Shown piece by piece: positions 12,079-12,942 of a stretch of 18,500 bases of DNA. The stretch is from a virus (Duplodnaviria > Heunggongvirae > Uroviricota > Caudoviricetes). The position numbers and the translations under genes are program-made. The stretch lies in IMG/VR virus record IMGVR_UViG_2534682324_000033. One strand, 5' to 3'. The notes below the pieces were generated by a model that saw only the letters and a program-made list of their open reading frames with translations, searched no databases and had not been told where the DNA came from. How positions within the stretch are numbered: the first letter of the stretch is position 1; every line of letters starts with the position of its first letter.

Positions 12079-12450
12079 ATGCAAAAAAAAGAAATTCGCC
12101 GTTTACGTCTCAAGGAGTGGTTTAAAGATAAAACTCTGCCACCCAAAGAGAAGAGCTACCTATCTCAACTAATGAGTGGGAGAGCCTCGTTTGGAGAAAA
12201 GGCTGCCAGAAGAATAGAGCAAACATACGGGATGCCGGAAGGGTATCTGGATGCGGAATACGCAGAACAACCGGGGGGTTCTCCACCACATGCAGGGTTA
12301 ACGTCTAATCAACTGGAATTATTGCAGATTTTTTCAGCCTTCCCTGAGGATGAGCAACGCCAGATAATCAGCGAGTTAAAGCAGAAAAAAGAATCAATGG
12401 AAGATCTCATAGCGAGATGGATTGCGGCGCAAAAATGCCGCCGCGCCTGA
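12079..12450 (+). CDS. prophage repressor-type HTH regulator (DicA/PaaR2-like)
   Basis: HTH region ...KSYLSQLMSGRASFGEKAARRIEQTYGMPEGYLD and C-terminal ...LELLQIFSAFPEDEQRQI resembling DicA; start taken at ATG 12079 because the tool start at 12016 lies in the operator region. Confidence 0.6.
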   Translation: MQKKEIRRLRLKEWFKDKTLPPKEKSYLSQLMSGRASFGEKAARRIEQTYGMPEGYLDAEYAEQPGGSPPHAGLTSNQLELLQIFSAFPEDEQRQIISELKQKKESMEDLIARWIAAQKCRRA

Positions 12451-12470
12451 GTTATAAAACCGGAGGAAAC

Positions 12471-12662
12471 ATGAATAGAGCCCTTTCACCAATGGTTTCT
12501 GAATTTGAAACCATTGAACAAGAAAACAGTTACAACGAATGGCTGCGTGCGAAAGTAGCAACGAGCCTTGCAGATCCGCGCCCAGCAATTCCCCATGACG
12601 AAGTTGAGCGCAGAATGGCAGAACGCTTTGCTAAGATGCGCAAGGAACGGAGCAAGCAGTAA
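12471..12662 (+). CDS. paaA2: type II antitoxin, 63 aa (PaaA2-like)
   Basis: MNRALSPMVSEFETIEQENSYNEWLRAKVATSLADPRPAIPHDEVERRMAERFAKMRKERSKQ; GGAGG Shine-Dalgarno; stop overlaps the toxin start (TAAAATG); gene name from memory of the O157 prophage PaaR2-PaaA2-ParE2 module. Confidence 0.65.
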   Translation: MNRALSPMVSEFETIEQENSYNEWLRAKVATSLADPRPAIPHDEVERRMAERFAKMRKERSKQ

Positions 12663-12663
12663 A

Positions 12664-12942
12664 ATGTTACCCGTGTTATGGCTTGAAAGCGCAGATACCG
12701 ACCTAGATGATATAACTAGTTATATTGCTCGTTTCGACATAGATGCGGCTGAACGCTTATGGCAGCGATTAAGGGGTTGTGTGCTGCCGTTATCCGAACA
12801 TCCGTATTTATACCCACCAAGCGACAGAGTACCTGGCTTGCGTGAGATTGTAGCCCACCCTAACTATATAATTCTATACCGCGTAACAACATCAAGCGTT
12901 GAAGTAGTAAACGTGATCCACGCAAGACGCCAGTTTCCCTAA
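12664..12942 (+). CDS. parE2: ParE/RelE-superfamily toxin, 92 aa (ParE2-like)
   Basis: MLPVLWLESADTDLDDITSYIARFDIDAAERLWQRLRGCVL...REIVAHPNYIILYRVTTSSVEVVNVIHARRQFP is the typical ParE fold pattern. Confidence 0.75.
   Translation: MLPVLWLESADTDLDDITSYIARFDIDAAERLWQRLRGCVLPLSEHPYLYPPSDRVPGLREIVAHPNYIILYRVTTSSVEVVNVIHARRQFP

Follow-up and report, generated by a model that had tools for sequence, protein, structure and literature searches.

The operon at 12079-12942 of the window (the whole 18,500-nt stretch of viral DNA that was analysed) is the paaR2-paaA2-parE2 toxin-antitoxin (TA) operon of the cryptic prophage called CP-933P in EDL933 and Sp12 in Sakai, both Escherichia coli O157:H7. With a probability of about 95%, the locus is the immunity region of this lambdoid prophage, in which a type II TA pair takes the place of lambda's rexA-rexB and PaaR2 is the repressor; no result of this analysis contradicted that reading. 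Publications already cover the locus, the structures of its three proteins and its place within a prophage switch (Hallez et al. 2010; Sterckx et al. 2014/2016; Jurenas et al. 2021, mBio, PMC8630535), and the finding is not new. What comparison between genomes contributes is evidence that the TA can be parted from the repressor, and that the N-terminal domain of PaaR2, together with its operators, defines an immunity type reaching into Klebsiella and Burkholderia phages.

Identity of the operon and its proteins

DNA from 11600 to 13300 was 100% identical to prophage Sp12 of Sakai and to many other O157:H7 genomes, in agreement with an earlier reading from the letters alone (the sequence-only reading), which had associated three-component systems of this kind with O157 prophages. 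Identity of the window to Sp12 was 100% from about 4500 to 18500. The 81 positions that differ from Sakai were confined to the late-gene part (about 1000-4500), and the first 1089 nt did not align to Sp12.

The positions and order of the open reading frames were as that reading had given them, with all three genes on the plus strand: paaR2 (12079-12450, 123 aa, ATG start), encoding a CI-analogue repressor and TA regulator; paaA2 (12471-12662, 63 aa), encoding an antitoxin without a DNA-binding domain and preceded by a Shine-Dalgarno GGAGG read from the sequence at 12461-12465 (plus strand); and parE2 (12664-12942, 92 aa), encoding a ParE-fold toxin. The names PaaR2, PaaA2 and ParE2 had been offered as likenesses, to be checked against the published proteins, and the comparison showed them to be exact. 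The 63-aa product is the crystallised PaaA2 (100% identical to PDB 3ZBE, 5CW7 and 5CZE), the 92-aa product is the crystallised ParE2 (100% identical to 5CW7 chain B), and residues 1-66 of PaaR2 are identical to the N-terminal domain in PDB 7NKV and 8C3K, past which the construct continues into its tag. PaaA2 matched Pfam PF21217 PaaA2 (E = 1e-19, 70.7 bits, cut-off 27). ParE2 matched PF05016 ParE_toxin (E = 1.9e-16, 60.9 bits, cut-off 23), as expected of the ParE fold, with weaker matches among ParE structures to 3KXE, 6X0A and 5CEG.

As in PaaR-PaaA-ParE three-component type II systems, a PaaA-family antitoxin is encoded directly upstream of the toxin, and a regulator gene precedes both on the same strand, 20 nt from paaA2. 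The stop/start overlap of paaA2 and parE2 that had been claimed is absent: the TAA at 12660-12662 and the ATG at 12664-12666 are separated by a single A, a gap of 1 nt. The pair is not a canonical ParD-ParE system of the RK2 type, its antitoxin belonging by Pfam to the PaaA family and not to ParD. Co-transcription of the three genes is reported in the literature, including a review that summarises Hallez 2010. For the identical sequence, ParE2 is described as toxic and as specifically neutralised by PaaA2, with post-segregational killing that depends on Clp (Hallez 2010, as relayed in PMC8630535 and PMC4803016), and a review credits Hallez 2010 with partial repression by the PaaA2-ParE2 complex, despite the lack of a DNA-binding domain in PaaA2. 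Published work describes ParE2 as neither binding GyrA59 nor inhibiting gyrase, and its overexpression as inducing SOS.

PaaR2 matched PHROG 5736, a transcriptional regulator (6.9e-39), and is labelled 'phage repressor protein CI' in Sakai. Pfam yielded no significant family, the best hit of the N-terminal DNA-binding domain being HTH_31 at E = 0.064, and the assignment as a helix-turn-helix (HTH) protein is taken from the PDB entry and the literature. Two parts can be distinguished, the DNA-binding domain (residues ~1-60) and a DicA-like C-terminal domain (~72-120) that is helical and probably serves oligomerisation. The earlier description of the gene as a 'DicA-like HTH' was correct for the C-terminal domain and incorrect for the HTH itself: likeness to K-12 DicA was confined to residues ~53-119 (29% over 70 aa, E = 4e-7, BLASTP), and the NCBIfam DicA model NF007257 matched at positions 83-130 only, scoring 28.1 bits where the cut-off is 101. 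PaaR2 therefore does not match over its full length the DicA-type prophage repressors, which combine an XRE HTH N-domain with the C-terminal domain. Peptidase_S24 had no match in the protein, just 123 aa long, even at E <= 1, and PaaR2 is outside the LexA/lambda-CI family of cleavable repressors, though CI-like in action.

We also considered the PaaR C-terminal domain as a TA-specific docking module common to all regulators that stand before paaA-parE. This was rejected because the same domain is present in DicA, from the TA-less Qin prophage, and in the repressor of a TA-less Klebsiella phage; the conserved domain is more likely an oligomerisation domain. The 'PAAR2' that the literature names in Burkholderia gladioli phages belongs to a T6SS PAAR cluster and has no relation to PaaR2. 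In RefSeq/PGAP, PaaR2 is a 'hypothetical protein' and YdaT a 'toxin YdaT family protein', and given these labels one residual value of the analysis lies in annotation.

Operators, promoters and the divergent ydaS-ydaT genes

The 97-bp region between paaR2 and ydaS (11982-12078) is the operator/promoter region OR. Three copies of GTTTAGTG were found in the window, all within this intergenic region, compared with 0.47 expected per 18.5 kb; they mark the starts of 18-bp repeats at 11992, 12011 and 12050. Among these, GTTTAGTGTTTAATAAAC (12011-12028) and GTTTAGTGATTACTAAAG (12050-12067) are the best palindromes, and the GTTTA-N8-TAAAC repeats are candidate contact sites for PaaR2 and YdaS. Binding of PaaR2 to 11982-12078, which the sequence-only reading had proposed to assay, is documented in PMC8630535 by EMSA and DNase I footprints, made with both PaaR2 and YdaS on the 97-bp region. 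The footprints, ~78 bp for PaaR2 and 65 bp for YdaS, span the whole of OR (PMC8630535).

Two promoters lie back to back in this region. PR (12010-12039, minus strand; TTGACT-18-TAAACT), which drives ydaS-ydaT, was recovered in a promoter scan and is supported by 5′ RACE and gfp fusions in PMC8630535. PRM (12044-12079, plus strand), which drives paaR2-paaA2-parE2, consists of TTGCTT (12044-12049), a 17-nt spacer and GATAAT (12067-12072), hexamers that are our own reading of the sequence and not scan output. Its +1, taken from PMC8630535, coincides with the first base of the paaR2 ATG (12079) and gives a leaderless mRNA. By inspection, no Shine-Dalgarno fits between the PRM -10 element and this ATG, and the leaderless start has been established by 5′ RACE, N-terminal sequencing (MQKKE) and mass spectrometry (PMC8630535).

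Downstream of parE2 are degenerate operator copies with an overlapping promoter (OL/PL, 13014-13058, plus strand). They comprise GTTTAGTTTTTACT at 13014 and the palindrome GTTTAATGTTTATTAAAC at 13036-13053, and PL (TTGACT-16-TAAACT, 13027-13054) has the same hexamers as PR and points away from the TA. As a leaderless CI analogue, PaaR2 binds OR, represses PR, PRM and the downstream PL/OL, and activates PRM when low; PL is repressed ~100-fold by PaaR2 or YdaS (PMC8630535). These repression measurements, like those of bistability, were made with plasmid reporters in K-12 rather than with the native single-copy prophage. A long imperfect hairpin (12961-13007, plus strand; 22-nt arms, 3-nt loop) lies between parE2 and OL. 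Folded as RNA it reaches -24 kcal/mol (z = -4.34, with 0 of 200 shuffles equally stable), and it probably forms the 3′ end of the operon transcript, as terminator or stabiliser; terminators made of a hairpin and a T-run are found at the equivalent position in other paaA-parE loci and in the TA-less Klebsiella phage.

Divergent from paaR2 is ydaS (11679-11981, minus strand, 100 aa), the cro analogue. Its product matched Pfam YdaS_toxin (3.3e-12) and HTH_3 (6e-7) and PHROG 35, transcriptional repressor, is labelled 'Cro' in Sakai and has a SYLSQ-M-SGR motif in common with the PaaR2 N-domain. A ydaT-like gene (11257-11682, minus strand, 141 aa) encodes the CII analogue of the prophage, with matches to Pfam YdaT_toxin (2.8e-10) and PHROG 163, 'CII-like transcriptional activator' (3.2e-47). 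The primary YdaT operator OM, TTGATTTTCATGAATCAA (TTGATT-N6-AATCAA; 11672-11689), is at the ydaS/ydaT junction, adjoining PRE, and had one exact match in the window compared with 0.10 expected; its motif and the YdaT footprint are from PMC9986795. YdaS as Cro analogue, YdaT as CII analogue and a YdaT-activated PRE are all described (PMC8630535; for YdaT also PMC9986795), as is a locus that is both bistable and addictive, through post-segregational killing (PMC8630535). The region has the features by which a lambdoid immunity region is recognised: divergent repressor and cro genes, back-to-back promoters and at least three repeated operators; a second operator set with an outward promoter beyond the repressor operon; and a CII-type activator gene with its binding site downstream of cro.

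The mechanism has been shown in the literature on the identical sequence. PaaR2, made from the leaderless PRM transcript, binds the repeated GTTTA-N8-TAAAC-type operators in OR and OL, repressing PR (ydaS-ydaT) and PL while stimulating its own promoter at low level and repressing it at high level. YdaS competes with PaaR2 for the same operators, giving two heritable states, and YdaT, bound to TTGATT-N6-AATCAA, activates PRE, from which transcription reads on into paaR2-paaA2-parE2. PaaA2 neutralises ParE2 in a tight complex and is degraded by ClpAP/ClpXP; when the locus is lost, ParE2 is freed and the cell is killed or arrested (post-segregational killing). The suggestion that TA regulation and prophage repression share one protein acting at the GTTTAGTG operators corresponds to what Jurenas et al. 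2021 (PMC8630535) demonstrated for the identical sequence.

Distribution of the module and role of the toxin-antitoxin pair

In megablast searches of 5426 complete E. coli genomes, paaR2 with OR was present in 593 and the whole module in 595. Wherever paaR2 occurred at >=95% identity the TA was next to it, and at megablast sensitivity none of these genomes had a paaR2-type immunity region without the TA. The paralogue paaR1-paaA1-parE1 of CP-933M in O157:H7 was not found by megablast, which returned one place per genome; the DNA of that copy has diverged too far.

Such constant linkage would be expected if PaaR2 were a dedicated TA part, the detached DNA-binding half of a 'split antitoxin' beside which the cro/cII neighbourhood is incidental, and the missing DNA-binding domain of PaaA2 and the three-gene operon fit the same idea. 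Relatives in other phages argue against it. Klebsiella phage 5 LV-2017, the only TA-less relative of the paaR2 region that was found, has homologues of PaaR2 (45% identity) and YdaS (49% identity) and the same OR/OL architecture. In Burkholderia phage vB_E177 the PaaR2 N-domain (65.5% over 58 aa) is fused to Peptidase_S24 (2.2e-15), by its domain content a classical cleavable CI. The OR core is conserved in the Klebsiella and Burkholderia phages, and the GTTTA-N8-TAAAC operators go with the PaaR2 N-terminal domain and not with the TA genes. Conversely, E. coli STEC2017-197 and RM9245 carry closely related PaaA (92-95% aa identity) and ParE (91-93% aa identity) proteins behind XRE/DicA-type regulators, with N-domains unrelated to that of PaaR2. 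Nucleotide homology of these loci to the window spans 12470-12939, essentially just the two TA ORFs; the STEC2017-197 intergenic region has no GTTTAGT-like site, and RM9245 has two regulators in tandem, including a PaaR2-like one with GTTTAGT-like sites. PaaR2 moreover represses PR and PL, neither of them a TA promoter, and its C-domain recurs in the Qin repressor DicA, which has no TA. The split-antitoxin explanation is largely refuted, and we consider it very improbable.

From TA-less PaaR2 relatives on the one hand and the same TA behind DicA-type regulators on the other, we infer that the TA behaves as a portable cassette which takes the rexAB slot whatever the immunity specificity. PaaR2 itself would be a genuine phage repressor, as its N-domain and operators occur in TA-less phages. 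Unlike the steps of the mechanism, these two points come from our comparisons.

The least probable explanation that we weighed is that the prophage has decayed and left the module as an inert, functionless relic. In its favour, CP-933P/Sp12 is a cryptic prophage whose integrase gene is a pseudogene, and steady-state ParE2 activity was not detected (PMC8630535). Against this, all three ORFs remain intact, with 98-100% conservation across ~593 genomes of serotypes O157, O26, O111 and others; the promoters and regulators function, and a mini-F plasmid gains stability from the locus (PMC8630535). The isolated coliphage Evi (LR597642), which has a full structural gene set, also has the module, and its parE2 ORF is intact. 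The relic explanation is already at odds with published reporter assays and tests of plasmid stabilisation.

A defence role deserves more weight but is still unlikely. Under this explanation paaA2-parE2 would serve mainly in anti-phage defence or superinfection exclusion (abortive infection, as for rexAB), instead of or besides addiction and stabilisation of the immunity region. The pair stands exactly where lambda has rexAB, flanked by the repressor gene and OL, and is co-expressed with the repressor; PaaA2 is protease-labile, so that ParE2 could be released on host shut-off; like a moron, the cassette passes from one heteroimmune prophage to another; Evi, an isolated phage, has it; and ParE2 activation was seen in neither transcriptional state (PMC8630535). 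On the other side, the demonstrated phenotype is post-segregational killing, that is, addiction (PMC8630535), and PADLOC found no matching defence-system model for any of the three proteins, giving the defence-system label no database support.

A broader proposal is tentative, if slightly less improbable than defence as the main role: that paaA2-parE2 is a portable cassette, expressed in lysogens, which several heteroimmune prophages and phages of the lambdoid kind, Evi among them, have in their rexAB slot, with a ParE2 target other than gyrase and a conjectural role in either abortive-infection/exclusion defence or 'immunity-region addiction'. If the former held, an incoming phage that shuts off host expression would let labile PaaA2 decay and so trigger the toxin; if the latter, recombinational replacement of the immunity region would carry a penalty. 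Evi, a free coliphage with the whole module, offers a live-phage system for testing the role of the TA.

Comparison with known systems

Among other tripartite type II TA systems, omega-epsilon-zeta of pSM19035 and pasABC resemble paa in having a separate regulator gene before an antitoxin without DNA-binding activity. The proteins are unrelated to those of paa, omega is a plasmid global regulator and not a phage repressor, and in paa a contribution of the TA complex to repression, a partial one, is reported in a review. The regulator-PaaA-ParE order in a lambdoid immunity region is found, as here, in paaR1-paaA1-parE1 of CP-933M, in RM9245 and in STEC2017-197. In the review's account of Hallez 2010, the paralogous systems 1 and 2 do not cross-neutralise. 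The STEC2017-197 and RM9245 regulators resemble DicA from end to end (34% identity), with a C-domain 53-54% identical to that of PaaR2 and a classical XRE HTH as N-domain.

The DicA/DicC region of Qin in K-12 belongs to the same prophage lineage and integration neighbourhood (the ynfA/speG side), and both prophages have dicF and dicB downstream. The C-terminal domain of DicA is homologous to that of PaaR2, whereas N-domain and operators differ, and there is no TA between dicA and ydfA.

The closest parallel in order and logic is the immunity region of lambda, with a leaderless repressor gene divergent from cro, OR and OL repeats, and a CII-type activator with PRE. In both, the repressor is octameric and two lysogen-expressed passenger genes lie between its gene and OL. 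Differences from lambda include an OR-OL distance of about 1 kb; four 18-bp inverted repeats and three pseudo-symmetric operators (PMC8630535), compared with lambda's three operators; and YdaT, a POU-type tetramer unrelated to lambda CII (PMC9986795). Unlike the lambda repressor, PaaR2 has no Peptidase_S24 domain, so that it undergoes neither RecA-dependent cleavage nor SOS induction. The passengers differ as well: rexAB in lambda, a TA pair here.

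Three genes of a known immunity module

Three plus-strand ORFs fill 12079-12942 exactly where a sequence-only reading had placed them: the regulator gene paaR2 (123 aa, 12079-12450), the antitoxin gene paaA2 (63 aa, 12471-12662) and the toxin gene parE2 (92 aa, 12664-12942). That reading had called them PaaR2/PaaA2/ParE2-like subject to alignment, and alignment bears the names out. The 63-aa product is 100% identical to PaaA2 of PDB 3ZBE, 5CW7 and 5CZE (Pfam PF21217, 'PaaA2'), the 92-aa product is 100% identical to ParE2 of 5CW7 chain B (Pfam ParE_toxin), and residues 1-66 of the 123-aa product are identical to the sequence in 7NKV, 8C3K and 8C3L, the PaaR2 N-terminal domain, deposited as 'Phage repressor protein CI'. 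The three-ORF observation is thus confirmed with two small corrections. The supposed toxin stop/start overlap is absent, as one base separates the paaA2 TAA (12660-12662) from the parE2 ATG (12664-12666), and the 'DicA-like HTH' description fits the C-terminal half of the regulator but not its N-terminal DNA-binding domain, for which Pfam gave no significant HTH match. PGAP/RefSeq labels (PaaR2, 'hypothetical protein'; YdaT, 'toxin YdaT family protein'; PaaA2, 'RelB family antitoxin') are behind, or at odds with, the experimental literature.

At 11600-13300 the DNA is 100% identical to the Sp12 prophage carried by E. coli O157:H7 Sakai, as well as to many other O157:H7 chromosomes; the Sakai counterparts are ECs_2279-2281, the first annotated 'phage repressor protein CI'. 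Jurenas et al. (mBio 2021, PMC8630535), working on exactly this sequence, identified the locus as the immunity region of CP-933P, a prophage identical to Sp12. The window and Sp12 are identical from ~4500 to 18500, and all 81 differences lie within 1000-4500. With the differences so confined, with no alignment to Sakai Sp12 over the first 1089 nt, and with no full-length 100% match among the collection's complete E. coli genomes (best, 99.6% over 97%), the window derives from a variant of Sp12/CP-933P whose late region has recombined. The late region carries an STnc100 sRNA (3099-3271, minus; 100.8 bits) and three tRNA genes (4045-4291, minus; ileZ/argN/argO in Sakai), all downstream of the Q antiterminator gene. 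A sok antisense RNA (7207-7381, minus; Rfam RF01794, 116.9 bits) adjoins a mokC/hokC-like gene annotated in Sakai (~7057-7269, minus), and together they are a second, type I, TA system of the prophage.

Operators, promoters and competing regulators

A 97-bp intergenic region (OR, 11982-12078) separates paaR2 from two minus-strand genes, the Cro-like ydaS (11679-11981; Pfam YdaS_toxin/HTH_3) and ydaT (11257-11682; PHROG 'CII-like transcriptional activator'). All three exact window copies of GTTTAGTG lie within OR (0.47 expected per 18.5 kb) and belong to 18-bp repeats, those at 12011-12028 and 12050-12067 being good palindromes. A consensus scan predicted PR (TTGACT-18-TAAACT, 12039-12010, minus) and, downstream of parE2, PL with the same hexamers (TTGACT-16-TAAACT, 13027-13054, plus), which overlaps two more operator copies at 13014 and 13036 (OL). 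Our own reading of PRM as TTGCTT-17-GATAAT (12044-12072, plus) puts +1 on the first base of the paaR2 ATG, so that a Shine-Dalgarno sequence would not fit. The YdaT operator defined by Prolic-Kalinsek et al. (2023, PMC9986795), TTGATT-N6-AATCAA, occurs once in the window, at 11672-11689.

The sequence-only reading also proposed that one protein serves as TA regulator and prophage repressor through repeated operators. This dual role is supported and already known, since Jurenas et al. demonstrated it on the identical sequence. In their work, paaR2 mRNA is leaderless (5′ RACE, N-terminal sequence MQKKE, intact mass); the 97-bp region is bound by PaaR2 (footprint ~78 bp) and YdaS (65 bp); PR, PRM and PL are each repressed by both proteins, with PRM activated at low PaaR2; YdaT activates PRE, between ydaS and ydaT; PaaR2-YdaS competition yields two heritable expression states; and the complete region matches ccdAB in stabilising a mini-F plasmid. 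Reviews citing Hallez et al. (2010) relay that the three genes form one operon, that PaaA2 neutralises ParE2 specifically and undergoes Clp-dependent turnover, that the TA complex represses partially, and that the locus causes post-segregational killing.

A SYLSQ(L)M(A)SGR motif is common to the PaaR2 N-domain (12079-12225) and the YdaS N-terminus (11835-11981, minus), with 35% pairwise identity over 46 aa (E 3e-4). This suggests that the recognition helices are homologous, and fits competition for the same operators with overlapping footprints.

Between the parE2 stop and OL/PL lies a long imperfect hairpin (12961-13007, plus; 22-nt arms, -24 kcal/mol, z = -4.34), stable but without a U-tract. 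Related loci have GC-hairpin and T-run terminators at this position, and the operon transcript may end at this hairpin; the available portions of published work on the locus contain no mention of it. PL is followed, as in Qin of K-12, by the DicF sRNA (14227-14278, plus; Rfam RF00039, 76.7 bits) and the cell-division inhibitor gene dicB (~14453-14641, plus). Antisense to the PL transcript is a 68-aa zinc-ribbon ORF (CPxCG...CxxCG; 13373-13579, minus; PHROG 4852, unknown function); Klebsiella phage 5 LV-2017 has a homologue in the equivalent place (29% identity, E 4e-11).

The repressor and the cassette apart

Among 5426 complete E. coli genomes, 593 contain paaR2 with OR and 595 the entire OR-to-OL module, in serotypes including O157:H7, O26 and O111, so at megablast sensitivity this repressor type is always accompanied by TA in E. 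coli. The module is also complete in Evi (LR597642; locus L008, 24332-25195), a 40-kb coliphage isolated from infant faecal samples with full structural and lysis gene sets. Identity to the window proteins is 98.4% for both PaaR2 and PaaA2, its parE2 ORF is intact, identical and lacks annotation in the record, and its OR differs by one base. That the module is an inert relic is scarcely credible given its presence in this phage, its sequence conservation and its published activity.

Relatives of PaaR2 occur beyond E. coli. Klebsiella phage 5 LV-2017 (L003 2905-3520) encodes homologues of PaaR2 (45% identity, full length) and YdaS (49%) and has the same OR core, with GTTTAGTAATGATTAAAC as its OL palindrome; its stretch from repressor gene through terminator to OL contains no TA. 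In Burkholderia phage vB_E177 (L004 2403-3163) a Peptidase_S24 domain is joined to the N-domain of PaaR2 (65.5% over 58 aa), making the protein a classical cleavable CI, and the OR core AGTTTA-N8-CTAAAC...GTCAAGT-TTTGCTT is retained. PaaR2 N-domain, YdaS-like Cro and OR core are conserved across Enterobacteriaceae and Burkholderia phages.

Conversely, E. coli STEC2017-197 and RM9245 carry the TA genes in the same prophage slot (PaaA 92-95%, ParE 91-93% aa identity). In these loci (L005 3181-4481 in RM9245, L006 3574-4481 in STEC2017-197) the cassette is 86-93% identical in nucleotides, and homology of their DNA to the window is essentially limited to the two TA ORFs, 12470-12939. The N-domain of their linked regulators is a DicA-like XRE one, and the C-domain alone is shared with PaaR2 (53-54%); no GTTTAGT-like site was found in the STEC2017-197 intergenic region. 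RM9245 has two tandem regulators ahead of TA, one PaaR2-like (74% identity) and one XRE-type, the latter overlapping paaA by 32 nt. A ydfA (DUF1391) homologue follows paaA-parE in these heteroimmune prophages, as in Qin.

Taken together with the shared motif, these comparisons show that the operators go with the regulator N-domain and not with TA, that PaaR2 is a true phage repressor with exchangeable N- and C-domains, and that paaA-parE is a separable cassette. PaaR2 as a mere TA component, half of a split antitoxin, is therefore very improbable: a homologue occurs without TA in the Klebsiella phage, the N-domain is part of an S24 fusion in the Burkholderia phage, TA sits elsewhere behind DicA-like XRE regulators, and PaaR2 represses promoters that are not those of TA.

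A repressor switch carrying an addiction cassette

We put at about 95% the reading that PaaR2 is a repressor switch at OR and OL, with an inserted TA cassette on the repressor transcript. PaaR2 at both operators represses PR and PL and autoregulates PRM, and, being octameric according to the literature, may loop the ~1 kb between them. YdaS opposes it, and YdaT raises expression through PRE. The repressor transcript also carries paaA2-parE2; labile PaaA2 holds ParE2, and when the locus is lost the toxin is freed. Published work has demonstrated the regulatory steps and the addiction phenotype; the history of cassette insertion, which Jurenas et al. also proposed, is inferred here from genome comparisons.

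A putative anti-phage defence role, which could coexist with addiction, is compatible with the cassette's position in the rexAB slot and with its mobility, yet PADLOC lent it no support and we consider it rather doubtful. ParE2 reportedly neither binds GyrA59 nor inhibits gyrase, yet its overexpression induces SOS. A mobile cassette serving defence or immunity addiction through a non-gyrase target is a tentative and rather unlikely proposition.

The PaaR2-PaaA2-ParE2 immunity module is already known and not a new finding. In it, paaA2-parE2 replaces rexA-rexB (PMC9986795), and PaaR2, in the cI/dicA position, has no peptidase motif (PMC8630535): the C-domain of the vB_E177 repressor is Peptidase_S24, whereas that of PaaR2 is DicA-like.
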